The position numbers and the translations under genes were made by a program. A stretch of DNA of 64,000 nucleotides from an uncultured Christensenellaceae bacterium (GTDB lineage: Bacteria > Bacillota > Clostridia > Christensenellales > MGBC116941), in the NCBI GenBank assembly GCA_910585035.1, contig CAJUEF010000004.1, forward strand, positions 1,499-65,498, read 5' to 3'. Positions 4,665 to 58,302 of this stretch are shown in pieces. Each line of letters begins with the position of its first letter. Positions within the stretch are counted from its first letter, which is position 1. The notes below the pieces were generated by a model that ran no database searches, was not told the DNA's origin, and saw only the letters and a program-made list of their open reading frames with translations.

Positions 4665-4782
4665 AAATTTGCTCCTTAAATATATTTGTTATAAGTATTG
4701 ACTCAGGTATAATAAATGTATGTTAATTTTAAGGGCGAATGATGTTATAATATTACTAATTAAGGCGAAGGCGGTGATAAAG

Positions 4783-5553
4783 GTGGACGATGCTCATAAG
4801 GAACACAGAAAAAGAATGATGACACGGTTAAAGAGAGATGGTGCATCAACATTTTTTGATCATGAGCTAGTTGAAATGCTGCTTTATTATGCAATTCCAA
4901 GGGGAGACACAAACCCAGCGGCCCACAGGCTTTTAAATGAATTTAACGGTATTAACGGCGTTTTCAAAGCCGACGCTTCTGCCCTTAAAGGAATTCACGG
5001 CGTTGGAGAGAAAAGCTCTATGCTAATTAATATTGTGGGAGAACTGCTGAGAAGAAGCGTTATTAAAACAGAAATATCCGAAAGCTACCGCATAACCAAT
5101 ACAAGTCAGGCGGTTACTTATTGCAAAACCCTTTTTCTGGATAAAAAATACGAATGCCTATATGCCATATGCCTTGATATTAAAGGTAAGGTTATTGCAG
5201 ACGGATACATTTGTGAAGGAGTTATAGACCAGGTGCCAGCCTATTCAAGAAAGGTTGTGGAAACAGCTCTTAGGCACACTGCATATACAGTTATAATTGC
5301 TCATAATCATCCGGGAGGGGAATGCAGCCCCAGCAGGGAGGATGACGAGGTTACGGAAAAGTTTCGCATTGCTCTTGAAGCTATTGGAATAACATTAAAC
5401 GATCATATTATTATTGGCGACGATGGTTATTTTTCCTATGCCAGCACAGGCAGGATGAACAGAGAAAGCCTAAGATACATGATTGAAGCGGCACAGAAAA
5501 ACAACCTTTTGCAAAAATCCCCTGAGGACTTTGACGATAAAACTATTGAGTAA
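4783..5553 (+). CDS. radC: RadC-family JAB/MPN-domain protein
   Basis: C-terminal motif HNHPGGECSPSREDDEVT (JAMM) plus an N-terminal helix-hairpin-helix region GIHGVGEKSS. The ORF track starts at 4720. I prefer the in-frame GTG at 4783, with ATG 4816 as an alternative, because family members begin close to the HR.R motif. Confidence 0.8.
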   Translation: MDDAHKEHRKRMMTRLKRDGASTFFDHELVEMLLYYAIPRGDTNPAAHRLLNEFNGINGVFKADASALKGIHGVGEKSSMLINIVGELLRRSVIKTEISESYRITNTSQAVTYCKTLFLDKKYECLYAICLDIKGKVIADGYICEGVIDQVPAYSRKVVETALRHTAYTVIIAHNHPGGECSPSREDDEVTEKFRIALEAIGITLNDHIIIGDDGYFSYASTGRMNRESLRYMIEAAQKNNLLQKSPEDFDDKTIE

Positions 5554-8111: not shown

Positions 8112-9545
8112 ATGAAAACGAGATTTGCACCAAGCCCTACCGGATATTTGCATATAGGCGGTCTTAGAACTGCCCTTTATTCTTGGCTTTACGCAAAGGG
8201 ACGAGAAGGAAAATTTGTGCTGCGTATTGAAGATACAGACAGGGAAAGATATGTTGAAGGGGCGACAGACCTGATTTACCGCACCTTAAAGGATACGGGC
8301 CTGACATATGACGAGGGTCCTGACGTTGGTGGTCCTAACGGACCTTATATTCAGTCTCAGCGCATGGATATATACAAAAAATATGCGGATGAGCTGGTGA
8401 AAAAGGGCAAGGCTTATTACTGTTTTTGTACTAAAGAACGTTTGGAGCAAATGAGAGAAAAAGATCCTACCTTTAAATATGACAAGCATTGCAAACGTCT
8501 TTCAGCAGAGGAGATAGAGGAAAATTTAAAAAATGGTGTGCCTTATGTTATAAGACAGGACATGCCTACAGAAGGGGAGATTTCCTATGAGGACATGGTG
8601 TTTGGAACGGTAACTGTGCCTGCAAGCGATTTAGACGATAACGTGCTGATTAAGTCTGACGGTATGCCGACTTATAATTTTGCCAATGTAATTGACGACC
8701 ATCTTATGGGAATAACCCATATTATCAGAGGAACCGAATATCTTTCCAGCACGCCAAAATACAATTTGCTGTATCAGGCCTTTGGCTGGGACGTGCCTTC
8801 GTATATCCATCTGCCCCCCGTTATGAAGGACGCTCACAATAAGCTGTCCAAAAGAAACGGGGATGCCAGCTATGAGGATTTGCTTGAAAAGGGATATTTA
8901 AAGGAAGCGATTATAAATTATATAGCTCTTCTTGGCTGGAGCCCCGGGGACAACCAGGAAATATTTACATTAGAGCAGTTAACAGACGCTTTTGACGTTA
9001 GAGGAATAAACAAAAGCCCGGCAATATTTGATGAGGCAAAGCTGCGCTGGATGAACGCTGAGTATATCAGGGCCATGTCAAAGGATGAATTTTTAGCAGC
9101 TTGCGAGCCTTATTTTAAACAGGTGTTTGGAGAAAAAGAATTTAACAGGGATATTCTTTGTGAAATACTTCAGCCAAGGCTCGAAGTGTTGACTGATATT
9201 TCAAGCAAGATAAGCTTTTTGGTTGACTTTGGAAATTATGATCCTGAGCTTTTCCTGCATAAAAAGATGAAGACTAACTTTGAAATTGCAAAGAACTCCA
9301 TTGCTTATGCCATTTCAGGATTAAATAATGTAGATTGGACTCATGACTCTATTTATGACTATCTTGTTGCTATTGCAGAGACTATTGGTTATAAAAAGGG
9401 ACAGTTTTTATACAGCATAAGAATTGCAATCACAGGGGTTGCAGTAACTCCGGGAGGAGCTATTGAAGCGGCGTTGCTGCTCGGCAAAGAGGAGACTCTC
9501 AGGAGACTTAATTATTCTCTTGAGATGTTGTCACTTCGTAAATAA
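8112..9545 (+). CDS. gltX: glutamate--tRNA ligase
   Basis: RFAPSPTGYLHIGGLRTALY (HIGH), LRIEDTD and KLSKRNG (KMSKS). The ATG directly abuts the glnS stop codon (TAG at 8109-8111). Confidence 0.92.
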   Translation: MKTRFAPSPTGYLHIGGLRTALYSWLYAKGREGKFVLRIEDTDRERYVEGATDLIYRTLKDTGLTYDEGPDVGGPNGPYIQSQRMDIYKKYADELVKKGKAYYCFCTKERLEQMREKDPTFKYDKHCKRLSAEEIEENLKNGVPYVIRQDMPTEGEISYEDMVFGTVTVPASDLDDNVLIKSDGMPTYNFANVIDDHLMGITHIIRGTEYLSSTPKYNLLYQAFGWDVPSYIHLPPVMKDAHNKLSKRNGDASYEDLLEKGYLKEAIINYIALLGWSPGDNQEIFTLEQLTDAFDVRGINKSPAIFDEAKLRWMNAEYIRAMSKDEFLAACEPYFKQVFGEKEFNRDILCEILQPRLEVLTDISSKISFLVDFGNYDPELFLHKKMKTNFEIAKNSIAYAISGLNNVDWTHDSIYDYLVAIAETIGYKKGQFLYSIRIAITGVAVTPGGAIEAALLLGKEETLRRLNYSLEMLSLRK

Positions 9546-9602: not shown

Positions 9603-10175
9603 ATGAGGAAAAAGATAACCTTTATACTGCTTGAACTAGCCTTTATAATTGGAGGGGCATATATAATAAAACTTGGGCAGTTCCACAACTTATCTGTAAT
9701 AGCCTTTTGCCTTGCATTTACTTTTATAATGTATTTTCTTGCCAGCCATAATATAAAGCCGGTTGACGATGGAATTTATGTTACCCTGTGCGGTTTTGTT
9801 TTCTTTGCTTCTTTTCTTGGATCTTGTTTTGACTTTTATAACCTTATAAGGTGGTATGATGATTTTTTGCATCTTTGGTCAGGGATTATTTGCTGTCAGG
9901 TGGGATTTGCTGCCACAAAGCATTTGCTTGAACCAACAGAGCCTCTTAATTCAAAAAAGAAATGGTTTGTAATGCTGTTTGTGTTTTTCCTCACTATGGG
10001 CTGCGCTTCGGTTTGGGAAATTCTGGAGTTTGGCGCTGATAATTTGCTGGGACTTAATATGCAGGCTGGAGGGCTTTCCGACACCTGTTTTGATATGTTG
10101 GATGCGCTTATAGGATGTTTGCTGACCCTGCCATATATATATACAAGGGTGAATAAAATGCATATAAATGAATAA
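9603..10175 (+). CDS. polytopic membrane protein, probably YjdF/DUF2238-like
   Basis: 190 aa with multiple TM segments. The C-terminal region SVWEILEFGADNLLGLNMQAGGLSDTCFDMLDALIGCLL resembles the remembered YjdF pattern (YELIEW...LGTQGD.WDTQ.DM..AL.G). This is a memory-based assignment only. Confidence 0.5.
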   Translation: MRKKITFILLELAFIIGGAYIIKLGQFHNLSVIAFCLAFTFIMYFLASHNIKPVDDGIYVTLCGFVFFASFLGSCFDFYNLIRWYDDFLHLWSGIICCQVGFAATKHLLEPTEPLNSKKKWFVMLFVFFLTMGCASVWEILEFGADNLLGLNMQAGGLSDTCFDMLDALIGCLLTLPYIYTRVNKMHINE

Positions 10176-14699: not shown

Positions 14700-14968
14700 T
14701 AAGAAATTGATAGGTAAATGTATTGATGGGGAAACCTGTTTTAGCTGATGTAAAGAGAGAAAATGGTTGGTGTAAATTTTCGTGAGGCTAAAATAAATCG
14801 GTCATCACCCCTGAACAGCAAGGCTGAAATTTAAAGTAGGCTGCGCCGGGACCTCCCGTTATTGAGGAGCAGTATTATTTGTACTGTGTTAAGCGCACAT
14901 TTTATTATGTGAATTTAGGTGGTAACGCGGATTTATTTCGTCCTTTAACGAGATAAATCCGTTTTTTG
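14700..14968 (+). promoter_or_regulatory. T-box riboswitch leader (tRNA-sensing antiterminator), probable Ile specifier
   Basis: Stem I elements are present: a tgatg/tgaa GA motif, an AGAGA box (about 14753), and distal loop ggttggtg closed by gaaaat/attttc. An AGTA box and an F-box (cccgtta) follow. The T-box sequence aatttaggtggtaacgcgg (14912-14930) overlaps the left arm of terminator gcggatttatttcg/cgagataaatccg (14927-14961), which is followed by a T run. Confidence 0.85.
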
Positions 14969-15014
14969 TTTTTATTGTGCCGGCTCTAAATATATATTAC
15001 CTAAAAAGCCTATA

Positions 15015-15061
15015 GGTTAGTTTTCTTTTACTGATTTTCTTTTTTATAAAAGAAAAATCAG
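15015..15061 (+). repeat. family A hairpin repeat, copy 1 (between the T-box terminator and ilvB)
   Basis: ggttagttttctttta flank, then ctgattttctttt / aagaaaaatcag stem with a 1-nt bulge. Confidence 0.7.
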
Positions 15062-15088
15062 ACAAAATTATGTTTGGAGGTTAAAGAA

Positions 15089-17206: not shown

Positions 17207-17224
17207 TGATTATAAGACGAAAAT

Positions 17225-17300
17225 GTGTTATAATAACCTCACGAAATGCTTGCAAAAGCGAAGCTTTTGATCATTTCGGAGAACATTGAAACTTATAATT
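17225..17300 (-). repeat. family B dispersed element, partial copy (B1), inverted relative to the copy at 42127
   Basis: gttataataacctcac ... ggagaacattgaaacttataatt matches the reverse complement of 42192-42264. The internal nested hairpin is cgaaatg/catttcg with caaaagc/gcttttg. Confidence 0.7.
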
Positions 17301-17334
17301 ATATAAATAAAGAAAGTTGGATTAAACGTAATTA

Positions 17335-17375
17335 GTTTTCTTTGGTTTTACCTTTCTTTTTTAAAGGAGGGCAAG
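17335..17375 (+). repeat. family A hairpin repeat, copy 2 (degenerate right arm)
   Basis: gttttctttggttttacctttctttt is conserved, but the right arm has decayed to aaaggagggcaag. Confidence 0.6.
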
Positions 17376-17452
17376 CGGAGAAATAAAAGGGATGAGGGAA
17401 TTAAGTAATATTTTAAATAATGTGTTAAGGAAGCCCACATATTGATGCAACT

Positions 17453-20185
<2,733 letters not shown>

Positions 20186-20298: not shown

Positions 20299-20440
20299 TT
20301 AATAGCAATGTGTATTGTGGTAAATATATAAGACTTTCGTTTGCTCCTTTATTTTTTTAAAAGAAGATGAAAGAGAAATGGAAAAAATAAAGACTGCCTG
20401 AATAAACAAATATATTTATTAAAGTGTTTATATGGAATAA

Positions 20441-20485
20441 GGTTTTCTTTTTGCTTCTTTTTCTTTTTTCTAAAAGAAAAAGAAG
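20441..20485 (+). repeat. family A hairpin repeat, copy 5 (immediately upstream of the cimA RBS)
   Basis: ggttttctttttg flank, then a perfect 14-bp stem cttctttttctttt (20454-20467) / aaaagaaaaagaag (20472-20485). Confidence 0.8.
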
Positions 20486-20504
20486 AAGAGAGAGGTGATA
20501 AATT

Positions 20505-24884: not shown

Positions 24885-24950
24885 CCATCTTTCTTTTACT
24901 TTTTACTTTTTCTTTTAAAAAAGAAAAAGTAACAAAAAGAAAATTATGAA
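24885..24950 (-). repeat. family A hairpin repeat, copy 6 (reverse orientation)
   Basis: Perfect palindrome ttactttttctttt (24903-24916) / aaaagaaaaagtaa (24919-24932). The flank caaaaagaaaat is the reverse complement of ATTTTCTTTTTG. Confidence 0.8.
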
Positions 24951-26150: not shown

Positions 26151-26253
26151 ACTTTCTGTCCCTGTTTTTTTTAAAAGAAATACATTATTAATAAAGTGTG
26201 TTTGTTATGGGAATGTCTATAATAAATGCACAAATACTTATTTGAGGATAATT

Positions 26254-26513
26254 AAGTTTTCTTTTGCTTACTTTTCTTTTTCTTAAAAGAAAAAATAATA
26301 AAATGTTTTTGTGGGTGAAATGACTATATAAAAGGAAAAAATTGTTTTAGAGGGTGAAATAAGTTTTCTTTTGCTTACTTTTCTTTTTCTTAAAAGAAAA
26401 AATAATAAAATGTTTTTGTGGGTGAAATGGCTATATAAAAGGAAAAAGTTGTTTTAAAGGGTGAAAATAAGTTTTCTTTTGCTTACTTTTCTTTTTCTTA
26501 AAAGAAAAGTAAG
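26254..26513 (+). repeat. tandem array (about 2.4 units of 107-108 bp), each unit starting with a family A hairpin repeat
   Basis: aagttttcttttgcttacttttctttttcttaaaagaaaa recurs at 26254, 26361 and 26469. Units 1 and 2 are near-identical. Only unit 3 keeps the perfect stem cttacttttctttt (26482-26495) / aaaagaaaagtaag (26500-26513). Confidence 0.9.
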
Positions 26514-26617
26514 AATTCATTGCTCTAATAATTATTATGTATTATAATAATTATCATACAAATATGCTTATATATAAAGCTTTGAAATAATCGTAATTAC
26601 TAAGAAGGAGATGTGTT

Positions 26618-27324: not shown

Positions 27325-28323
27325 GTGATACAATTTGAAGGTTATGATAGAAGAATAGATAACATCAATGCTGTTTTAAAGGAAAACGGTTTTTCCTCTC
27401 TTGAAGAGGTGAAGCAGCTTTGCGAGAGCAAAGGCATTGACGTGCATAAAATTGTTTTCGGAGTGCAGCCAATTGCGTTTGAAAATGCCGCATGGGCATA
27501 CACTCTTGGTGCGGCTATTGCCATTAAAAGAGGGGTTAATAAGGCGAGTGACGCAGCAGCCGTAATTGGCGAAGGCTTGCAGGCGTTTTGTGTTCCGGGC
27601 AGCGTGGCTGACCAGAGAAAGGTTGGCAGAGGCCATGGAAATCTTGGAGCAATGCTTTTAAGAGAAGAAACAGACTGTTTTGCTTTCCTTGCGGGACATG
27701 AATCCTTTGCGGCGGCAGAGGGAGCAATAGGCATTGCAAGGGCTGCAAACAAGGTTAGGCAAAAGCCTCTTAGGGTAATTTTAAACGGCCTTGGAAAAGA
27801 CGCTGCTTACATTATAAGCCGTATAAACGGTTTTACTTTTGTGGATACCAAGTTTGATTATGACACTGATAGCCTAAGTGTGGTATCGGAAAAAGCATTT
27901 TCCAAAGGCGAAAGAAGCAAGGTTCGCTGCTATGGCGCCAACGATGTCAGAGAAGGCGTTGCTATCATGATTAAAGAGGGCGTGAACGTGTCAATTACAG
28001 GCAATTCCACAAATCCTGTGCGTTTTCAGCATCCTGTTGCCGGCACTTATAAAAAGTGGGCGGTGGAAAACGGCTTTAAATATTTTTCTGTGGCATCAGG
28101 AGGAGGAACAGGAAGAACGCTGCATCCTGATAATATGGGTGCAGGGCCTGCATCCTACGGGCTTACCGATACCATGGGAAGAATGCACTGTGACGCCCAG
28201 TTTGCAGGGTCATCCTCTGTTCCCGCTCATGTTGATATGATGGGGCTTATAGGTATGGGCAACAACCCAATGGTGGGAACCACCGTTGCCGTTGCCGTTG
28301 CCGTTGAAGAGGCAATGAAATAA
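27325..28323 (+). CDS. GGGtGRT-motif protein (uncharacterised conserved family)
   Basis: GTG start 9 nt after AGGAGG. The motif SGGGTGRT is encoded at 28096-28119 (GGGTGRT at 28099-28119). I recall a family named after this motif with no assigned function. There are no TM segments. Confidence 0.7.
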   Translation: MIQFEGYDRRIDNINAVLKENGFSSLEEVKQLCESKGIDVHKIVFGVQPIAFENAAWAYTLGAAIAIKRGVNKASDAAAVIGEGLQAFCVPGSVADQRKVGRGHGNLGAMLLREETDCFAFLAGHESFAAAEGAIGIARAANKVRQKPLRVILNGLGKDAAYIISRINGFTFVDTKFDYDTDSLSVVSEKAFSKGERSKVRCYGANDVREGVAIMIKEGVNVSITGNSTNPVRFQHPVAGTYKKWAVENGFKYFSVASGGGTGRTLHPDNMGAGPASYGLTDTMGRMHCDAQFAGSSSVPAHVDMMGLIGMGNNPMVGTTVAVAVAVEEAMK

Positions 28324-42103: not shown

Positions 42104-42128
42104 GGAGACCTTTTAGGTCTCCTTTTTT
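42104..42128 (+). terminator. intrinsic terminator after the second PPIase gene
   Basis: ggagacc (42104-42110) / ggtctcc (42116-42122) followed by a T6 run. Confidence 0.8.
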
Positions 42129-42266
42129 ATAACATAATTAAACTTTGCGTCAGCAAAGAATAGCGATAGCTATTTAAACCGTCAGGTTTTAATTATAAGT
42201 TTCAATGTTCTCCATAACTTTCAAAATCTATGATTTTGTAAAAGTTATGTGAGGTTATTATAACAT
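42127..42266 (+). repeat. family B dispersed element, full-length copy (B2)
   Basis: About 140 bp bounded by a direct repeat ttataacata (42127 and 42255). It contains hairpins ctttgc-gtca-gcaaag and aatagc-gata-gctatt, the motif ccgtcagg, the nested hairpin cataacttt[caaaatc-tat-gattttg]aaagttatg, and the terminal gtgaggttattataac. Confidence 0.75.
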
Positions 42267-42398
42267 ACAATTCAGTTATTTTTTTAAACTGGTTTTATTT
42301 TACAGTGAGTTTTGATATAATGAAGGCGTGGCGGCAACAGGCTTGCCGGCAGAAAAGCGCCATTAAAGTATTGGCGCTCTCAAAGGAGGAAATGTTGT

Positions 42399-48761: not shown

Positions 48762-48867
48762 TCGGCTTATTATCTGTTATAATAGCTTCATCCATCTTTA
48801 TTTAAGAAAGGTAAGGTGGAGCAGGAGAAACTTAATTATAAGTTAAGAAATTAAAGTGGAAAATATA

Positions 48868-48912
48868 AGGTTTTCTTTTTATTGCTTTTTCATTTTTCTA
48901 AAAGAAAAAGTA
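48868..48912 (+). repeat. family A hairpin repeat, copy 8 (left arm degenerate)
   Basis: ggttttcttttta flank and an intact right arm aaaagaaaaagtaa (48899-48912). An isolated right-arm fragment, aagaaaggtaag, lies at about 48806. Confidence 0.6.
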
Positions 48913-48941
48913 AAATAGAAGTATAGAAAAAGCAACAAAGT

Positions 48942-49006
48942 ATATTGTAATAACTTTACGACATGCAAAGGCGAAACTTTTGCGTGCTTTGAAGTATATA
49001 TTATAA
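48942..49006 (-). repeat. family B dispersed element, partial and diverged copy (B4)
   Basis: attgtaataactttacgacatgcaaaggcgaaacttttgcgtgc aligns with 17227-17270 (gttataataacctcacgaaatgcttgcaaaagcgaagcttttgatc). Confidence 0.5.
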
Positions 49007-49138
49007 TAAAAAGAGTATATGGCTTTGTGCAGGGAGTAATTCTTATATAAGTGGTGATATGACGGATTTAAGAGATAATTGATGAATTAAGTACTGCCCG
49101 GGAAATATACAAAAGAAAAGGAATTTAGTGGAGGAAAT

Positions 49139-50479
49139 ATGAAAGATAACAAAAGAGTTCATTTTGCCAGCAAGATTGGATTTCTTCTGGCAACAGCAGG
49201 CTCCGCCGTGGGGCTTGGAAATTTATGGAAGTTCCCGTATATGACAGGTCTTAACGGCGGCTTTCTGTTTATTATAGTATCATTAGTTATGGTATTTTTA
49301 ATAGGCATGCCGGTTATGATGTCGGAAATGGCTATTGGACGAAATACGCAGAAAAGTCCTGTGGGCGCTTATTCTGCAATAAACAAAAAATACCGTATAT
49401 TTGGTATAATGCCAACGATTGTGGCGTTTATAATTTTGTCTTACTACAGCGTTATAGGCGGATGGGTTTTAAAATACCTGTTTACATATGTAACAGGGGG
49501 ATTAAACGGCGTTTCAGCGGCAACAGCCTTTGAAAGCTTTGTTACCAATCCGTGGGAGCCGTTAATATGGCATGGAATATTTATGGCTATTACCATTGGC
49601 ATATGTTATATGGGTGTTAATAAAGGAATTGAAAAAGCAAGTGAATTTATGATGCCTGCGCTTTTTATAATAGTTATAATCACTTGTATTCGTTCAATAA
49701 CTTTGCCGGGCGCAATGGATGGTGTTAAATTTTTATTTCAGCCGAATTTGGATAAGATATTTTCTCCTGAGCTTTATATAGGCGCTCTGTCACAGTCTTT
49801 CTACTCTCTTAGTCTTGGTATGGCGATTATAATTACTTATGGAAGCTATATGAATAAAAGTGAGAATATAGGCAAGAGCTCTGCAATAGTTTGTTCAATG
49901 GATTTATCTGTGGCCGTACTTGCCAGTATAGCAATTATGCCTGCGGTATTTTCCGCAGGATTGGAGCCAACTTCAGGACCAAAGCTGATATTTGTTACTT
50001 TGCCTTATGTATTTGAAGCAATGCCAATGGGCGTTTTATTTGCGGTTCTGTTCTTTGTGCTGGTATTATTTGCAGCTGTTACAAGTTCTATATCCCTGCT
50101 TGAGACAACGGCTGCTTATGCTATAGACGAGAGAGGCTGGTCAAGAGCAAAGGCGGTTTTGGTGCTTGGAACTATTATGGCTATAATAGGTATACCTTCA
50201 TCTCTTTCTCAGGGAGTATGGGCTGAGTATACCGTTATGGGTATGGGTTGCCTTGATTTTCTTTCGTTCCTTACAGATAATATTATGCTTCCAATATGTG
50301 CCTTTTGCAGTTGTATTTATATCAGCCGCTGCTGGAAAACCAGTAACGCTTGTGATGAAATGGGTCTTAAAGGTGCCTTTAGAAAGGCTTACAGCTTTAT
50401 TATAAGCTATGTGGCTCCGATAGCCATTGCGGTAGTATTTATATATGGCTTGCTGCCTTTCTTTGGGGTTAAGGTTTAA
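49139..50479 (+). CDS. sodium-dependent transporter, SNF (neurotransmitter:sodium symporter) family
   Basis: SKIGFLLATAGSAVGLGNLWKFPY is the NSS signature. 446 aa, about 11-12 TM segments. Confidence 0.9.
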   Translation: MKDNKRVHFASKIGFLLATAGSAVGLGNLWKFPYMTGLNGGFLFIIVSLVMVFLIGMPVMMSEMAIGRNTQKSPVGAYSAINKKYRIFGIMPTIVAFIILSYYSVIGGWVLKYLFTYVTGGLNGVSAATAFESFVTNPWEPLIWHGIFMAITIGICYMGVNKGIEKASEFMMPALFIIVIITCIRSITLPGAMDGVKFLFQPNLDKIFSPELYIGALSQSFYSLSLGMAIIITYGSYMNKSENIGKSSAIVCSMDLSVAVLASIAIMPAVFSAGLEPTSGPKLIFVTLPYVFEAMPMGVLFAVLFFVLVLFAAVTSSISLLETTAAYAIDERGWSRAKAVLVLGTIMAIIGIPSSLSQGVWAEYTVMGMGCLDFLSFLTDNIMLPICAFCSCIYISRCWKTSNACDEMGLKGAFRKAYSFIISYVAPIAIAVVFIYGLLPFFGVKV

Positions 50480-51645: not shown

Positions 51646-51661
51646 GTTATGTTTATTTATT

Positions 51662-51706
51662 GGTTTTCTTTTTGTTACTTTTTCTTTTTTCTAAAAGAAA
51701 AAGTAA
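51662..51706 (+). repeat. family A hairpin repeat, copy 9 (near-consensus)
   Basis: ggttttctttttg flank, then a perfect 14-bp stem ttactttttctttt (51675-51688) / aaaagaaaaagtaa (51693-51706) with loop ttct. Confidence 0.85.
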
Positions 51707-51711
51707 GCAGT

Positions 51712-51945
51712 TTATTTTCTTACAATAAAAGGTTTTAATATCTCATAGTCGGAAGGTTCGCTAAGGCTGAGCTCCCACTCAATGTTGTTGTCATCATCAA
51801 ACATTTGTGTAATTGCGATATACTGGCAAAGAGTGGACCTAAGGTTAAGCTTATCGCCGTCCCCAGTTATAAGCTCGACTTCACCTTTGCATTGCAGCAC
51901 AGCTTTAAAGAACTCCTTTAAGTTAATAATACCTTTAATATCCAT
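51712..51945 (-). CDS. small hypothetical protein (77 aa) translationally coupled to nfnB
   Basis: Its start lies 4 nt after the nfnB stop codon. It is acidic and has no recognisable motif. Confidence 0.55.
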   Translation of the reverse strand: MDIKGIINLKEFFKAVLQCKGEVELITGDGDKLNLRSTLCQYIAITQMFDDDNNIEWELSLSEPSDYEILKPFIVRK

Positions 51946-55184: not shown

Positions 55185-56618
55185 ATGATTTATATATTTG
55201 TAATTTTGTATATTGTTGGGCTGGCTGCAATATCCGTTATAACCAGTAAAAAATTTAATTCGGTAGACGATTTTTTACTCGGAGGAAGGGAAATGGGCCC
55301 ATGGATAAGCGCTTTTGCCTATGGAACAACATATTTTAGCGCCGTTATATTCGTGGGATATGCGGGAAGCGTGGGATACGGCAACGGCATATCGGGAATT
55401 TTGGTTGGTTTTGGAAATGCTTTTATAGGAAGTATGCTGGCATGGTTTGTGCTGGCGAAGCGCACCAGGTCTTTCACCGGTAAATATAATATTTCCACTA
55501 TGCCGGAGTTTTTTGAAAAACGATATGATTCCAAAGGGCTTAAAATAGCAAGCGCAGTTATTATATTTGTGTTTTTGGTGCCATATTGTGCATCTGTTTA
55601 TCAAGGATTGTCCTATCTTTTTGAAATCAGCCTTGGAATTAAGTTTGAGTATTGCATAATTGCAATGGCTGCCATTACTGCTGTGTATCTCTTTTTCGGC
55701 GGATATTTTACAACGGCTTTTGTAAATATGTTCCAGGGTATAATTATGATTGTAGGCGTAATCTTAATGGTTGCATTTATTATGTATAATCCTAAAGTCG
55801 GCGGATTTGTAAATGGTATATCCCAGCTTAAAAGTATTGATCCAAAGCTTGTGTCATTTAATCCCTTAGATATTAGCAACGTAATAGTTATGACCCTTCT
55901 TACCAGCGTTGGAAGCTGGGGATTACCCCAAATGGTGCACAAGTTTTATACGATTAAAGATGAAAAAGCAATTAAAAGCGGAATGATAATATCTACGTTA
56001 TTTGCTTTGCTCATTGCCACAAGCGCATATTTTGTTGGAGCGTTCGGAAGGTTTTTTATTGAATCGGGTGCAGTGGCAGACACTTCGACGGTTGTTCCCG
56101 TGATGATAACTGCCGCACTGCCTGAATTGCTTGTTGGACTTGTAATAGCGCTTGTACTGTCTGCATCAATGTCAACTTTATCATCTTTAGTACTTGTTTC
56201 CGCTTCGTCTATTGCCGTTGATTTGTTAAAGGGACACTTTAAAAAGGATATGGACAATAAAAGCGTAGTGCTGGTTCTTAGAGTTCTTTGTGTAATCTTT
56301 GTTATTGTATCTCTTATAGTTGCTTTAGATAAAAATAACGCTATAGTTACTCTTATGTCTTATTCCTGGGGCACAATATCAGGCTGTTTTATTGCACCGT
56401 TTTTATATGGGCTTTATTGGAAAGGCATGACAAAGGCAGGTGCGGTCTCAGGCATTATTTGCGGACTGGGCATTAATCTTATTGGCTTTTTATTTGTACA
56501 TAATGCGCCTCTTACAGGTGTTATTGCAATGTTTGCATCACTGGCGGTTGTTCCTGTTGTCAGCCTTTGCACGGCTAAATACAGCAATAAGTTTAATGAA
56601 GAAATAATGAAGTTTTAG
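55185..56618 (+). CDS. sodium:solute symporter (SSS) family transporter (PutP/PanF-like)
   Basis: DDFLLGGREMGPWISAFAYGTTYFSAVIFVGYAG is typical of the SSS N-terminus. ATG 55185 follows gggagaggg. The track's TTG is at 55143. Confidence 0.88.
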   Translation: MIYIFVILYIVGLAAISVITSKKFNSVDDFLLGGREMGPWISAFAYGTTYFSAVIFVGYAGSVGYGNGISGILVGFGNAFIGSMLAWFVLAKRTRSFTGKYNISTMPEFFEKRYDSKGLKIASAVIIFVFLVPYCASVYQGLSYLFEISLGIKFEYCIIAMAAITAVYLFFGGYFTTAFVNMFQGIIMIVGVILMVAFIMYNPKVGGFVNGISQLKSIDPKLVSFNPLDISNVIVMTLLTSVGSWGLPQMVHKFYTIKDEKAIKSGMIISTLFALLIATSAYFVGAFGRFFIESGAVADTSTVVPVMITAALPELLVGLVIALVLSASMSTLSSLVLVSASSIAVDLLKGHFKKDMDNKSVVLVLRVLCVIFVIVSLIVALDKNNAIVTLMSYSWGTISGCFIAPFLYGLYWKGMTKAGAVSGIICGLGINLIGFLFVHNAPLTGVIAMFASLAVVPVVSLCTAKYSNKFNEEIMKF

Positions 56619-56638
56619 TAGTTATCGGGAAGCTTATT

Positions 56639-56746
56639 AGGTTATTATAACGCAATTAAGCTTTGCGATAGCAAAGTAATGGCGGCAGCTAATTAGGCCG
56701 TCAGGTCGTAATTGTGTTCCAGTGTTTTGTGAGGTTATTATAATGT
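56639..56746 (+). repeat. family B dispersed element, short copy (B3)
   Basis: Bounded by a direct repeat aggttattataa (56639 and 56732). It shares ttataac..aattaa.ctttgcg..agcaaag...agcta.tta..ccgtcagg..taatt and gtgaggttattataa with copy B2, but lacks the nested hairpin. Confidence 0.75.
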
Positions 56747-56797
56747 GGGATTTGCAGGTAATACAGAGATAAATTTAGAGAATAAGGAGAAAGAGTT

Positions 56798-58171
56798 TTG
56801 AAACAGAGAGAAAAATTTTCATCCCGAATGGGATTTGTGCTTATTTCGGCGGGGTGCGCCATAGGTCTTGGAAATGTATGGAGGTTTCCTTTTATTACAG
56901 GTAAATATGGCGGAGCTGCATTTGTCCTGTTATATTTGATATTCCTTGTAATTATGGGGCTGCCAATAATGATTATGGAGTTTACTGTAGGTAGAGCTAG
57001 CCAGAAAAGTGTTGCCATGTCCTTTGATGCTTTGGAACCGGCGGGTTCTAAATGGCATTTGCACAAATATACGTCTATTGCAGGCAATTACCTGCTTATG
57101 ATGTTTTATACAACGGTGGCAGGGTGGATTCTTATTTATTGCTGGAAAATGGCTGTCGGCGGATTTCAGGGCATGAGTCCCACTCAGATTTCAGATGTGT
57201 TTTCACAAATAAACGCCCAGCCTCTTGTAACAGTTGGAGCCATGTTTATCGTAGTTATCGGCTGTTTTAGCATATGCTCCTTTGGCTTAAATAATGGTGT
57301 GGAAAAAGTTACAAAGATTATGATGCTGTGTCTTCTTGCGATTATGCTGGCCCTTGCAATTCATTCTGTTACTATGCCCGGGGCTGCTGAAGGCTTGTCA
57401 TTTTATCTTTTGCCGGATTTTTCAAAGCTGACGGAATACGGTCTTTTTAATGTGATTTTTGATGCAATGGGTCAGGCGTTTTTCACCCTTAGCCTTGGTA
57501 TGGGTTCCATTGCAATTTTCGGAAGCTATATTGGGAAAGAAAGATCTTTAACAGGAGAAGCTGTTATAGTTACCCTTCTTGATACATTTGTTGCGCTAAT
57601 GGCAGGATTTATTATATTTCCTGCATGCTTTACCTTTGGATTGCAGCCGGATAGCGGACCAAAATTAATTTTTGAAACCTTGCCAAACGTGTTTGCAGGT
57701 CTTCCGGGAGGGAGAATGTGGGGATTTTTATTCTTCGTTTTTCTGCTTTTTGCAGCACTGTCAACGGTTATTGCGGTGTTTGAAAACATTTTGGCATGGT
57801 GGATGGATTATAAGGACTGGAGCCGTAAAAAAACTGTTTTAATCAATGTTGTATTAATGTTAATACTATGTCTTCCATGTGTTTTGGGATTTAATTTGCT
57901 TAGCGGTGTTCAGCCTTTTGGCGCAGGAAGCACAATTATGGATCTTGAGGATTTTATTGTTAGCAATAATGTTCTGCCTTTAGGCTCCCTTATCTATTTG
58001 CTGTTTTGTACCAGCAAATACGGCTGGGGATGGAATAATTTTCTGGAGGAAGCAAACACAGGACTTGGGGCAAAATTTCCTAAATGGGTGAAGGTGTATG
58101 TGTCATATGTGCTGCCTCTTGTTATTTTGGTGATATTTATACAAGGCTACGTTGCTAAATTTTGGATTTAA
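56798..58171 (+). CDS. sodium-dependent transporter, SNF family (second paralog)
   Basis: TTG start after aaggagaaagag. SRMGFVLISAGCAIGLGNVWRFPF is the NSS signature. Confidence 0.9.
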   Translation: MKQREKFSSRMGFVLISAGCAIGLGNVWRFPFITGKYGGAAFVLLYLIFLVIMGLPIMIMEFTVGRASQKSVAMSFDALEPAGSKWHLHKYTSIAGNYLLMMFYTTVAGWILIYCWKMAVGGFQGMSPTQISDVFSQINAQPLVTVGAMFIVVIGCFSICSFGLNNGVEKVTKIMMLCLLAIMLALAIHSVTMPGAAEGLSFYLLPDFSKLTEYGLFNVIFDAMGQAFFTLSLGMGSIAIFGSYIGKERSLTGEAVIVTLLDTFVALMAGFIIFPACFTFGLQPDSGPKLIFETLPNVFAGLPGGRMWGFLFFVFLLFAALSTVIAVFENILAWWMDYKDWSRKKTVLINVVLMLILCLPCVLGFNLLSGVQPFGAGSTIMDLEDFIVSNNVLPLGSLIYLLFCTSKYGWGWNNFLEEANTGLGAKFPKWVKVYVSYVLPLVILVIFIQGYVAKFWI

Positions 58172-58185
58172 CTGAGATAGGAAAT

Positions 58186-58235
58186 CCTCTTACTTTTCTT
58201 TTTAGGAAAAAAGAAAAGTAAGCAAAAGAAAAACC
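58186..58235 (-). repeat. family A hairpin repeat, copy 10 (reverse orientation)
   Basis: Perfect 14-bp stem cttacttttctttt (58189-58202) / aaaagaaaagtaag (58209-58222). The flank caaaagaaaaacc is the reverse complement of GGTTTTTCTTTTG. Confidence 0.85.
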
Positions 58236-58302
58236 AGTTGATTTTAATATTTTATTATTTATAAATATTTTTGCAAACTTATTGTAGAAACAGAAGATAA
58301 TT

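Follow-up and report, generated by a model that had tools for sequence, protein, structure and literature searches.

A 64,000-nucleotide stretch of DNA (referred to as a whole as the window) carries four related sequences in the spacers between its genes, and the initial annotation offered two readings of them, a MITE-like element or a cis-regulatory or small-RNA module. The question raised by the locus is which kind of sequence these are and how they came to lie where they do. The results described below make it probable that all four are copies of one non-coding, modular, palindromic repeat family, which spreads within the genomes of Oscillospirales-type Clostridia and has lodged at the -10 boxes of sigma-A promoters. 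The family is apparently undescribed, though repeats of this kind are already known.

Four copies of one repeat in the window

A repeat search showed that the longest inverted repeat of the window pairs 17226-17301 with 42190-42265 (76 nt, 80% complementary). The sequence GTGAGGTTATTATAA occurs exactly at 17228-17242 (minus strand), 42249-42263 (plus) and 56729-56743 (plus), and when up to three mismatches were allowed the window gave 11 matches where 3.2 were expected, a number equalled in none of 100 shuffles. A covariance model trained on copies from other genomes was then scored on the window and recovered 17222-17299 (plus strand, 59.8 bits), 42192-42269 (minus, 52.8 bits) and a degenerate match at 48939-49012 (plus, 20.3 bits, E 0.08); at 56709-56749 (minus) it identified a copy with a deleted hairpin, in which both flanks align and 39 model positions are reduced to 5 nt. 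These results confirm that the four sequences are related, as had been proposed. The 5' block of the original description is common to the two long copies only (CTTTGCGNNAGCAAAG at 42143 and 56661; AGCTA.TTA..CCGTCAGG at 42168 and 56687), and the copy at 17225, which had been called partial, is a complete core that merely lacks this block. The informative strand turned out to be the reverse complement of the one on which the sequences had been read. On this strand the unit consists of an extended -10 box (TRTG-n-TATAAT), AACCTCAC, a bulged hairpin, (T)GAGAGAACATTGAAAC, optional mini-hairpins and a second -10 box. The features of the four copies are as follows.

17224..17234, plus strand: left promoter box of copy 1, TGTG-T-TATAAT, an extended -10 box with the TRTG motif that matches TGTTATAAT, 18 nt past the ilvN stop
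17235..17292, plus strand: core of copy 1, with AACCTCAC at 17235-17242, a bulged nested hairpin at 17242-17278 and GAGAACATTGAAAC at 17279-17292
17293..17299, plus strand: second -10-like box of copy 1, TTATAAT, directly 3' of the core
42192..42269, minus strand: box and core of copy 2, with TGTTATAAT at 42257-42265, AACCTCAC at 42249-42256, the hairpin at 42213-42248, GAGAACATTGAAAC at 42199-42212 and a middle TTATAAT at 42192-42198
42126..42191, minus strand: optional module of copy 2 (the 5' block of the original description), with three mini-hairpins, CTTTGC-GTCA-GCAAAG, AATAGC-GATA-GCTATT and AAACC-GTCA-GGTTT, and an AT-rich closing stem
42126-42134, minus strand: terminal degenerate box of copy 2, TGTTATAAA, adjoining the terminator of the upstream gene
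48775..48783, plus strand: TGTTATAAT box at the SNF site, 12 nt past the stop codon of the upstream gene
48939..49012, plus strand: degenerate core of copy 3, with TTGTAAT, AACTTTAC, an imperfect hairpin and TTATAAT at 49001-49007, facing the SNF transporter gene at 49139
56709..56749, minus strand: core of copy 4 with the hairpin deleted (covariance model), with ATTATAAT at 56737-56744, AACCTCAC and then AAAACACTGGAACAC
56652-56712 (within 56636..56712), minus strand: three-hairpin module of copy 4, DNA fold z -3.0 on the plus strand
56639-56651, minus strand: terminal box of copy 4, GTTATAATAACCT, the first 13 nt of a further unit (covariance model match 56605-56656)

The core of copy 1 (E 2e-10 in the covariance model) folds as DNA at -14 kcal/mol (z -4.3), and the fold of 42124-42272 is a four-way junction of -26 to -27 kcal/mol, with z-scores of -6.4 and -6.8 on the two strands. 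A terminator scan at copy 2 found the terminator of the upstream gene (42104-42122) and, weakly, flagged the last mini-hairpin together with TTTAATTATG as terminator-like on the minus strand; it gave nothing else. At the SNF site, the box at 48775 is the left one of two -10 boxes that bracket approximately 217 nt of inserted repeat DNA, made up of a family A copy and copy 3. The suggested outward-facing -10 box at the 3' end is not the usual arrangement: TGTTATAAT lies on the opposite strand, from which it reads into the element and out at the far side; only in copy 4, where ATTATAAT (56737-56744) is a palindrome with TATAAT readable on both strands, does the box also occur in the direction first supposed.

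The neighbouring genes, ilvC, an EF-G paralog and two SNF transporters, had been named correctly. By position all four copies do lie in 5' regions, as had been stated, but only copies 17222-17299 and 48939-49012 face the gene in question (ilvC and the SNF transporter gene, respectively). Copies 42126-42269 and 56636-56749 are reversed and point away from the downstream gene to the 3' end of the upstream one, copy 2 being directed towards the end of a rotamase gene and away from the EF-G paralog. These reversed copies are probably neutral, or a source of short antisense or read-in transcripts. No -35 hexamer was found at the window copies and, as a consequence, a promoter scan requiring two hexamers called nothing there.

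A freely drifting hairpin between two conserved boxes

The compensating changes noticed in the nested hairpin proved to be both real and general. Across 44 distinct copies from other genomes, among the matches listed, both sides change in 12 of the 16 pairs and 95% of cells are paired, whereas none of 500 shuffles reached the observed covariation and slid structures also fell far short. The hairpin (12-16 bp) is thus free in sequence with its pairing kept, and it drifts while AACCTCAC and GAGAGAACATTGAAAC on its two sides are nearly invariant across approximately 60 species among the matches listed. G-U pairs make up only about 2% of hairpin pairs and are equally rare on both strands (23 versus 31), which indicates that the constraint acts at the level of DNA. 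The element is modular, a core being followed by an optional block of mini-hairpins (three in the window); this "cloverleaf" module has 2-3 mini-hairpins and a closing stem of AACATAAT/ATTATGTT, and spacers of 2-3 hairpins equivalent to the copy 2 module are present in arrays of other genomes. The mini-hairpin loops read GNNA on one strand and the purine loop of the large hairpin lies on the other. In the arms, ATTATGTTATAATAACCTCA and TGAGAGAACATTGAAACATAAT, the outer pairing is 8/8, followed by nine Watson-Crick pairs in the next 14 positions.

The core always follows (T)TATAAT, and the next box on its right side is (T)TATAAT or ATAAT. The right ends are ragged: the last bases may be TATAAT, AAC or AACCT, or the end may fall within a further unit. 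Locus L137 opens with a partial unit, the final mini-hairpin of which stands before the left box. These observations suggest that the flanking boxes may reflect unit periodicity rather than target duplication. The direct repeats reported at 42127/42255 and 56639/56732 are indeed present; what they appear to mark are successive -10 boxes, the boundaries of tandem units, and not a random target duplication.

Several other identities were considered and rejected. A small reading frame that begins with the TTG of CATTGAAAC remains open in several genomes, yet it encodes unrelated peptides of varying length. The inner palindrome CAAAATC-N3-GATTTTG, a possible CodY or LexA-type operator, gives way to GC-rich palindromes in other genomes, and GAACATTGAAAC does not fit a GAAC-N4-GTTC box. 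An intrinsic terminator is not apparent in the core, where the sequence after the hairpin is GAGAGAACATTG on one strand and GTGAGGTTATTAT on the other and there is no GC-rich hairpin with a T-run. Successive units of an array have near-identical "spacers", not unique ones as in a CRISPR array, and the element ends GTT...AAC on both strands, the reverse order to that of an integron attC site, with units of 98-138 nt that lack an ORF.

Distribution, arrays and spread within genomes

An exact-pattern scan with one genome per species identified at least 117 loci in at least 60 assemblies, and all of the matches listed came from Clostridia labelled Oscillospiraceae, Ruminococcaceae, Acutalibacteraceae or unclassified Clostridia. 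These listed matches comprised at least 152 instances and at least 114 distinct cores, many of them in tandem arrays of 2-5 units, and the covariance model found 188 copies in the 724 kb of scanned loci. Candidate carriers in culture are Faecalispora jeddahensis JCD, F. sporosphaeroides DSM 1294, Anaeromassilibacillus senegalensis mt9, Clostridium minihomine and C. merdae. In every array all the units lie on one strand, head-to-tail. The arrays are mostly extragenic, 19 of 119 overlapping an ORF predicted by a crude caller. Among dispersed copies, hairpin identity is 83% inside an assembly compared to 62% between assemblies (P = 2e-43); a hairpin sequence recurs at unrelated loci of one genome, but not at the corresponding locus of other genera. 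Orthologous arrays vary in copy number (L179/L190, L121/L161 and L124/L196), while in sister species the element has been retained at the same gene (proB in L135/L149, Tex in L176/L210).

No Rfam family matched the window or ten array-bearing loci at the gathering score, and raising E to 10 gave chance-level matches only, in agreement with the initial statement that the family was not a recognised one. Searches of phage and plasmid collections with a 149-nt unit (blastn) gave no match. One "viral" contig carrying an array (L008) is 96% identical to a chromosomal locus of Faecalispora jeddahensis (L123). In the literature neither form of the conserved 15-mer was found in any paper, and keyword searches returned only general papers on mobile promoters and REPINs.

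Filled and empty sites in related species

The element is absent from close relatives at all three orthologous sites examined, and at two of these one plain -10 box stands in its place. Relatives with ilvC or EF-G proteins 87-91% identical to those of the window have no core in approximately 60 kb spanning the three sites. In the ilvN-ilvC spacer the core is absent from L229, L230, L231 and L234; in the related species L230/L231 this spacer is 69 nt long with a single TGTGCTATAAT box that corresponds in position to the left box of copy 1, and to the right of copy 1 homology resumes (TTATAAT-TATATAAATAAAG in the window, CTATAAT-TAATACTATAAAATAAAAT in L230). Copy 2 is absent from L234 and L236. 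The SNF spacer of L236 (130 nt) has one TGCTATAAT box, 20 nt past the stop codon, and no core, and the sequence 3' of the window's right box (TATATGGCT) matches that 3' of the L236 box (TTTATGGCT); the flanks in these empty-site alignments are short, diverged and AT-rich. In a second lineage (leuC, 89-93% identical) the relatives have plain promoters where the rightmost box stands. Within the species of the window, the element occupies identical positions in each of three MAG assemblies and in several metagenome contigs, copy 2 being identical in the three assemblies; empty sites were seen in other species only.

The unit starts with a consensus -10 box

The box that opens the unit, TRTG-n-TATAAT, is the consensus extended -10 box of Gram-positive bacteria, and it agrees with a sigma-A promoter in its base counts, in the enrichment of -35 hexamers and in its distance from the ATG. 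The T-R-T-G positions, which lay outside the scan pattern, are kept in the 146 copies listed (T 108, R 131, T 140, G 141; TG about 95%), and 57 copies not forced by the scan pattern retain TG and T-A-x-A-A-T but differ at the neutral n (A27, T21, C5, G4). The leftmost box often has a host -35 hexamer upstream: at least four of six TTGACA matches were present at 16-18 nt in 43 of the 106 copies that start a run, compared with 13/106 at a control distance (P = 4e-6). Beyond the last core an extended -10 box was found in 48 of 67 loci, in 26 of these 48 exactly TGTTATAAT, with a median of 78 nt to the start codon; the rightmost box lies 25-100 nt upstream of the start codon. TRTGTTATAAT is the commonest promoter box of the carrier genomes. 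The core has a fixed orientation with respect to the box and the -35 hexamer of that box. Among the matches listed, 71 of 86 genes on the GAAAC side run in the direction of the element (P = 7e-10), a ratio of 28 to 7 being obtained for head-to-tail gene pairs; only 4 of 68 cases lie in convergent spacers. This bias could partly reflect the co-orientation of genes with replication. The TTGAAA of the right box was discarded as a -35 hexamer, there being no -10 box 16-18 nt downstream, and the strand read in the initial annotation was discarded as the RNA strand, as it has no conserved promoter and neither fold energies nor G-U counts lend it support.

The genes downstream are unrelated: 66 of their proteins match 129 Pfam families, none of which is matched by more than two proteins. 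They therefore do not constitute a regulon, as would be expected for a riboswitch, a T-box or another cis-regulatory leader. The family is not a gene-specific switch, and the window copies are not ilvC-specific or transporter-specific regulators.

The unit might still be an sRNA gene or a cis-acting 5' leader RNA; the transcript would start from the unit's own TGTTATAAT box, form the large hairpin and the mini-hairpins and stop at the last mini-hairpin with its U-rich tail, and the arrays would be tandem sRNA genes. The promoter at the start, the strong covariation, the stable folds, the terminator-like last mini-hairpin with TTTAATTATG on the working strand and the fact that the core makes up the whole 5' UTR of the downstream gene at L206 and L187 are all consistent with this idea. 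However, the strand proposed as RNA has no higher frequency of G-U pairs (about 2%) than its complement, the GNNA loops and the purine loop fall on opposite strands, and most of the tails beyond the last hairpin are not U-tracts. Functionally the downstream genes are unrelated, the copies are homogenised within genomes and missing from close relatives, some array units (L149, L196) have no TATAAT and are otherwise kept, and Rfam has no match. We consider an RNA gene or leader unlikely. The regulatory or small-RNA half of the initial reading is not favoured because the downstream genes share no function, G-U pairs are rare on both strands and the copies are near-identical within genomes but differ between them; the other half comes close, in that the repeat is dispersed, non-coding and palindromic, amplifies within genomes and is placed upstream of genes.

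The best reading is a non-autonomous, copy-spreading repeat which supplies a promoter and a 5' hairpin leader. If so, each insertion or duplication would leave a working promoter at both sides, the downstream gene would retain its own start and acquire at least one upstream promoter, and transcripts from the element promoters would start 1-3 nt ahead of a stable stem-loop. In the Firmicutes, a 5'-terminal hairpin of this kind shields mRNA from 5'-end-dependent decay. The promoter activity and the effect of the stem-loop leader on transcripts are both predictions from sequence.

Comparison with known repeats

Correia elements (CREE) of Neisseria resemble the element in being short (about 100-155 bp), non-coding, palindromic, intergenic and multi-copy, with sigma-70 promoter boxes at their ends that alter neighbouring expression and transcripts that fold as a long hairpin. 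They are unrelated in host and sequence, and they have clear 26-bp terminal inverted repeats, a TA duplication, both orientations and no head-to-tail arrays, whereas the element has poor inverted-repeat termini, whole -10 boxes as brackets, a biased orientation and common arrays. The BOX elements of Streptococcus pneumoniae are also modular and intergenic (boxA, a variable number of boxB and boxC) with strong predicted secondary structure. They share with the element a position near gene starts, a Gram-positive host and tandem repetition, but BOX repeats one internal module where the element repeats whole units, there is no sequence similarity, and the BOX modules are not bounded by -10 boxes and have no consensus extended -10 motif.

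REP, BIME and REPIN sequences are extragenic imperfect palindromes of 20-40 nt, multi-copy, species-specific in sequence with the structure kept and often found in mosaic clusters, and they are thought to move as single-stranded hairpins by means of Y1 (HUH) enzymes, the RAYT transposases. With 188 model matches in 724 kb the element is likewise a short extragenic imperfect palindrome in many copies. REPINs, however, are inverted doublets, whereas the units here are strictly head-to-tail, with no REPIN doublets or BIME alternation; REPs lie mostly at gene 3' ends, the element at 5' ends on promoter boxes; REP sequences vary between species, while the two flanking boxes of the element hardly vary throughout an order. 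None of the loci examined showed a RAYT gene with the element on its flanks. PATEs, which derive from IS200/IS605, lack good terminal inverted repeats, have sub-terminal hairpins and a strand-specific orientation, and insert beside a short specific sequence that also ends the element. The element resembles PATEs in its poor inverted repeats and sub-terminal hairpins, and may also resemble them in insertion adjacent to a short sequence and in strand-specific orientation. At least two carrier genomes have an IS200-type tnpA, but the ends of the IS200 at L119 are unrelated to the element, and we know of no member of the IS200/IS605 family with a 6-7 nt target equal to a -10 hexamer.

A further comparable category is that of the putative mobile promoters of Matus-Garcia, Nijveen and van Passel (2012), near-identical upstream sequences before unrelated genes, sometimes across genera, families and orders, which are mostly without an Rfam match and whose mode of movement was not established (PMC3575422). 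The same paper cites Correia elements as mobile, promoter-bearing elements, and its screen covered positions -150 to -50, so that the -10 box was mostly excluded (PMC3575422). Putative mobile promoters are a bioinformatic category, whereas the present family is defined by its box, its covarying hairpin and its arrays.

How the element might move

As a tentative model, which we regard as possible though doubtful, the repeat could be "promoter-homing", with the sigma-A -10 hexamer itself as the insertion site, perhaps as easily melted single-stranded DNA. The box would be rebuilt on both sides, so that a promoter is never killed, and each insertion would create two new targets, re-insertion of the element into itself giving tandem promoter arrays. 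A partner transposase or other enzyme was not found near the copies. IS200-type tnpA genes occur near copies in two of the 117 loci listed, no better than chance, and a tblastn search with a Y1 transposase consensus as query found one intact IS200-type tnpA (L119, 6818-7288) and a pseudogene (L111), neither flanked by the element; the L119 IS200 ends in GC-rich hairpins. A full-length IS with the element's ends was not present in approximately 1 Mb of loci, and a search for lone arms gave truncated copies only, with no pair of arms around an ORF.

Single-strand mobilisation of the HUH type, or template switching, is more likely than the movement of a classical cut-and-paste MITE, since the hairpins are restricted to Watson-Crick pairs, the terminal inverted repeats are poor and the orientation to the box is fixed. 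A classical MITE would have imperfect terminal inverted repeats, (ATTA)TGTTATAATAACCTCA and TGAGAGAACATTGAAACA(TAAT), would be moved by the DDE transposase of an IS and would duplicate a short AT-rich target, TA or TTATAAT. In favour of this, the element is small, non-coding and multi-copy with AT-rich ends, its arms form an imperfect inverted repeat (outer ATTATGTT/AACATAAT 8/8, with the nine further pairs described above), and TTATAAT is found on both flanks of the insert in the two filled-versus-empty comparisons (ilvC and SNF). But taking TTATAAT as the duplication leaves AACCTCAC and CATTGAAAC as the true termini, and these do not form an inverted repeat; counting the box as part of the repeat instead leaves copy 17222-17299 without a TA duplication. 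Symmetric cut-and-paste also predicts both orientations per site, whereas the orientation observed is fixed and the array units are all head-to-tail, and an IS with such ends is missing from the 1 Mb of loci; this reading is rather improbable.

The insert is invariably flanked on both sides by one 7-11 nt box (TRTGTTATAAT), which is also the promoter box most often seen in these genomes. The sequence might be no transposon at all, but spread from one promoter to another through microhomology-mediated template switching or gene conversion at near-identical -10 boxes, with forks stalling at the hairpins and unequal exchange giving arrays. The ragged right ends and partial left units are as the dynamics of tandem repeats predict, and both the different copy numbers of orthologous arrays and the lack of a transposase fit this view. 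Most known systems, however, require more than 7-11 nt of homology for copying between distant loci, and the near-invariance of AACCTCAC and GAGAGAACATTGAAAC over approximately 60 species beside a drifting hairpin resembles recognition by a protein, leaving copying of this kind quite improbable. Least probable is a fixed host promoter architecture, in which the two invariant boxes bind a conserved regulator or an RNA polymerase accessory factor, the hairpin is a spacer and the copies are ancient and kept gene by gene: the order-wide conservation of both boxes, the consistent placement and orientation upstream of genes and the retention at proB and Tex in sister species agree with it, but not the reversed copies behind gene 3' ends (two of the four in the window among them), the arrays of up to five units, the hairpins shared across unrelated loci of a genome and not by the same locus across genera, the absence from close relatives at three orthologous sites or the preserved pairing, for which a double-stranded spacer has no need.

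Implications for gut Clostridia

The Oscillospirales (the Ruminococcaceae, Oscillospiraceae and Acutalibacteraceae groups) are dominant gut anaerobes that are poorly studied and mostly known from metagenome-assembled genomes. Many metagenome contigs carrying the window's ilvC end approximately 210 nt upstream of that gene, within the repeat-filled spacer, and the repeat accounts for one class of assembly breaks. It also offers a compact cassette of promoter and 5' hairpin, ready for use in organisms without genetic tools. With its position on promoter boxes ahead of housekeeping genes in at least 60 species, the repeat would affect where many genes start transcription, how strong their promoters are and what 5' ends their mRNAs have. 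If insertion at the -10 hexamer is true, it would be an unusual choice of target for a bacterial repeat and would show plainly that a mobile sequence can duplicate promoters; the promoter-homing repeat would then be a selfish element with the promoter as its niche, and a natural source of promoter multiplication and of 5'-hairpin leaders across an order of gut bacteria.

Four family B copies in the window

The longest inverted repeat of the entire window pairs 17226-17301 with 42190-42265 (76 nt, 80% complementary), and the 15-mer GTGAGGTTATTATAA occurs exactly at 17228 (-), 42249 (+) and 56729 (+), with a number of near-matches that no shuffle of the window equalled. The four related copies of the initial annotation are therefore real, and the neighbouring genes are as named there. 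A covariance model trained on 44 distinct family members recovered exactly these four places, together with two terminal remnants.

Family B copies in the window
17222-17299 (+): faces ilvC
42126-42269 (-): reversed, behind the 3' end of the rotamase gene
48939-49012 (+): diverged fourth copy, near-match to GTGAGGTTATTATAA at 48945 (-); faces the SNF transporter gene
56636-56749 (-): reversed, behind the 3' end of the SSF symporter gene

The 5' block (CTTTGCG..AGCAAAG, then AGCTA.TTA..CCGTCAGG) is common only to the two long copies (42127 and 56639); on alignment, the hairpin has been lost from the 56639 copy and the block is missing from the 17225 copy. A T-box leader (110 bits) lies at 14714-14948, upstream of ilvB-ilvN, which places the copy at 17222-17299 inside a T-box-controlled operon, ahead of ilvC. 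An exact CTTTGCGNNAGCAAAG match at 27418-27433, within the coding region 27325-28323, was judged to be a chance palindrome and no family B copy.

Distribution and anatomy of the family

Among viral contigs scanned for the 15-mer, one carried four tandem copies, with GC-rich hairpins of identical shape; this contig is in fact chromosome-like Faecalispora DNA. A search pattern consisting of the two conserved flanks, applied to one genome per species, detected at least 117 loci in at least 60 assemblies. Among the matches listed there were at least 152 pattern instances and at least 114 distinct cores, often arranged head to tail (2-5 units per array, period 98-138 nt), and all carriers were Clostridia (labelled Oscillospiraceae, Ruminococcaceae, Acutalibacteraceae, Anaeromassilibacillus, Faecalispora, Neglectibacter and similar). 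The covariance model found 188 copies in 724 kb of the listed loci. Family B is a widespread family and no peculiarity of the window.

Read on the strand opposite to that of the initial annotation, every copy starts with TGTTATAAT, followed by AACCTCAC, the core hairpin (a 5-7 bp outer stem, a bulge of 2-4 nt whose side never changes, a 6-7 bp inner stem and a loop of 3 nt) and (T)GAGAGAACATTGAAAC. In most genomes two or three mini-hairpins with four-base loops come after the core, closed by a AACATAAT/ATTATGTT stem and then another TGTTATAAT. The 5' block is this mini-hairpin module, the predicted fold being a four-way junction of three hairpins; for the 149-nt unit at 42124-42272 the predicted fold has z = -6.4 and -6.8 on the two strands. 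Since the unit runs box, core, mini-hairpins, box, the short direct repeats that bound both long copies, present as described, are successive promoter boxes, i.e. unit boundaries. Across the 44 copies, 12 of the 16 pairs had changed on both sides with 95% of cells paired, and 500 shuffles and slid partners both fell far short, so that the compensating changes noted in the nested hairpin were confirmed many times over.

Internal array units of some genomes carry GATTGAAT in place of TGTTATAAT, and the promoter box is thereby lost (loci L149, about 1950-2450, reverse complement; L196, 560-1120; L113; L124; L145; L212). In these units AACCTCAC, the hairpin and GAGAGAACATTGAA are all intact, so something besides the box is also conserved.

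The promoter box

The search pattern constrained only the TTATAAT of the box. In 146 copies, the two bases preceding it were T in 140 and G in 141, and the next two upstream were T in 108 and A or G in 131. The sequence TRTG-n-TATAAT is an extended -10 promoter typical of Gram-positive bacteria, and by its sequence the family B box is a putative promoter of this type. A further 57 copies outside the pattern kept the TG and the strong TATAAT positions, with the functionally neutral position n being A in 27, T in 21, C in 5 and G in 4, as predicted by selection on promoter function. A -35-like hexamer lay 16-18 nt from 43 of 106 boxes that start a run, against 13 of 106 at a control distance (P = 4e-6). 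The flanks outside these boxes are unique sequence, so the hexamers are the host's own; as judged from sequence, the leftmost box is a component of a complete host promoter.

Beyond the last core, an extended -10 box was present in 48 of 67 loci (exactly TGTTATAAT in 26), typically 35-70 nt past the core and 25-140 nt ahead of a start codon with a ribosome-binding site; TGTTATAAT-N27-GGAGG-N6-ATG and similar arrangements were common. Where a second box is lacking, as at L206 and L187, the core itself forms the 5' leader. The suggestion that the element ends supply an outward-facing -10 box mostly failed, as the box is on the opposite strand; it may hold only at 56737-56744, where the box is the palindrome ATTATAAT and so, alone among window boxes, could fire also towards the SNF gene at 56798. 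A separate extended -10 box, TGATATAAT at 42313-42321, serves the EF-G paralog by position and is kept in relatives (L234, about 8690-8700, TGCTATAAT; L236, about 9885-9895). Downstream of it lies a GC-rich leader of ~75 nt (GGCGTGGCGGCAACAGGCTTGCCGGCAGAAAAGCGCC...) that looks structured.

Placement relative to genes

Gene orientation around the loci was taken from a simple ORF caller. The gene flanking the element on its GAAAC side pointed away from it in 71 of 86 cases (P = 7e-10), placing the element upstream and co-directional; the gene on the other side was randomly oriented. Between head-to-tail gene pairs the element was co-directional in 28 and reversed in 7, and only 4 of 68 cases fell in convergent spacers. 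The 66 downstream proteins matched 129 Pfam families, none more than twice, and included RNA methyltransferases, LeuC, PfkA, Tex, RNase H, S-adenosylhomocysteine hydrolase, a glycoside hydrolase and peptidases. This functional mixture makes a riboswitch-like or operator-like role unlikely, and the downstream genes do not make up a regulon.

Minimum-energy folds of 114 variable hairpins contained ~2% G-U pairs (promoter strand 23, complement 31), indicating that neither strand tolerates transition mismatches in G-U form any better. The constraint appears to be on Watson-Crick pairing in DNA, or in both strands. The loop asymmetries conflict as well: purine loops occupy one strand in the big hairpin and the opposite one in the mini-hairpins. 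Family B is probably not an RNA acting from one strand. Of the original interpretation, the MITE-like, promoter-proximal part stood and the regulatory RNA mostly did not.

Probable gain of cores in the window lineage

Hairpins were 83% identical (median 88%) between loci within an assembly, compared with 62% across assemblies (P = 2e-43), and the unit number of orthologous arrays varied among sister species. In the syntenic DNA of relatives with 87-91% identity to the window in the ilvC and EF-G proteins, which covers three of the window's four sites, the covariance model found no core at any point. One relative's ilvN-ilvC spacer is 69 nt long with a single TGTGCTATAAT box 40 nt ahead of the ATG; the window has TGTGTTATAAT, a 58-nt core and TTATAAT before the sequences re-align (TATAAATAAA...), and past the re-aligned stretch two copies of another repeat. 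At the SNF gene, a relative's spacer (130 nt) has one TGCTATAAT box 20 nt past the upstream stop codon, and that of the window has TGTTATAAT 12 nt past the stop, ~217 nt of repeat DNA (a copy of a second repeat, family A, plus a degenerate family B core), TTATAAT and the shared TATGGCT. In a second lineage, box, core, mini-hairpins, box and 31 nt precede the ATG of leuC at L137, and relatives with LeuC 89-93% identical show plain promoters at 35-45 nt without any core. Three gains in the window lineage are more economical than repeated precise losses.

Other repeats in the same spacers

Family A of the initial annotation (GGTTTTCTTTTTGCTTACTTTTTC-TTTTTTCTAAAA-GAAAAAGTAAG, a long AT-rich palindrome) shares the repeat-filled ilvN-ilvC and SNF upstream spacers with family B, and is also found in the ilvN-ilvC spacer of a relative without family B (L229, 2200-2250 and 2500-2545). 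A third, GC-rich repeat is present in relatives' ilvN-ilvC and rotamase/EF-G spacers; the same spacers thus gather different repeats in different species.

Other dispersed repeats
Family A, 7-9 window copies: 15013-15067, 17330-17368, 17449-17487, 20437-20491, 24901-24941, 26251-26519, 48865-48919, 51658-51712, 58190-58240 (three tandem units at 26223-26519)
Third repeat: L229 2330-2420 and 2550-2580, L236 9430-9670; ...GCGGCGGGATGTGGGCATCC(C/T)GCCCTACGAA..., ...GGGCACGCCGCCCTACGGGTGATGTGG...
Different ~100-nt tandem repeat: L210 5525-5754, three copies (one in sister species L176); ...GGCGTGACGCCGCTCACAATTCGAGCAGA(C/T)AGGTTTGACAAATTAGAAGTCTTTTTTGCCC...

Metagenome assemblies break at these spacer repeats: eight of ten contigs with the window ilvC (the L218-L225 set) stop 205-214 nt upstream of ilvC, within the repeat-filled spacer.

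Proposed working and mobility

The anatomy, covariation, placement, orientation bias, within-genome homogeneity and presence or absence among relatives are most likely those of a copy-spreading, non-coding palindromic repeat living at promoter -10 boxes. From their sequence, the boxes would fire as promoters, and transcripts from the upstream box would begin 1-3 nt before the hairpin, with +1 set 6-8 nt past TATAAT. A 5' stem-loop stabilises mRNA in other Firmicute leaders, and by analogy that of family B may do so; arrays would act as stacked promoters.

Several features fit single-strand, HUH-type movement as in IS200/IS605 or REP/RAYT, namely hairpins with Watson-Crick pairs only, the orientation, and a short sequence that is fixed at each junction. 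However, a search with a hand-written consensus gave just two Y1 transposase genes; these have unrelated ends and occur at chance-level frequency.

Y1 transposase genes
L119 6818-7288: intact IS200-type gene, 156 aa (HIVFAPKYRR...CPDHIHMLV...FWSRGYYVDTVG); 360 nt from a family B core, adjoining a fragment resembling a transposase C-terminus
L111 about 4750-5150 (complete genome AP031437.1): decayed, frameshifted relative, 4 kb from a 5-unit array

Copying by template switching from one near-identical box to another would account for right ends being ragged and for L137 having a partial unit on its left, but leaves unexplained why the two flanking boxes hardly vary throughout an order. The case for a classical MITE is weakened by the poor terminal inverted repeats, the fixed orientation relative to the box, the strictly head-to-tail arrays and the absence of a full-length partner in ~1 Mb of loci.

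A copy-spreading repeat at -10 boxes works like Correia, BOX, ERIC and REP/REPIN elements, but by sequence family B is no member of any of them. It has neither inverted doublets nor clear inverted repeats plus TA duplication, its arrays lack CRISPR-type unique spacers, no attC core sites were found in it, and no Rfam model matches it. No description was found in Rfam, phage, plasmid and paper collections, which are themselves incomplete, so that its status as undescribed is provisional. It falls in the category of "putative mobile promoter" (PMC3575422). Provisionally, family B is a new family within a known class of bacterial repeats, unusual in its association with the -10 box.
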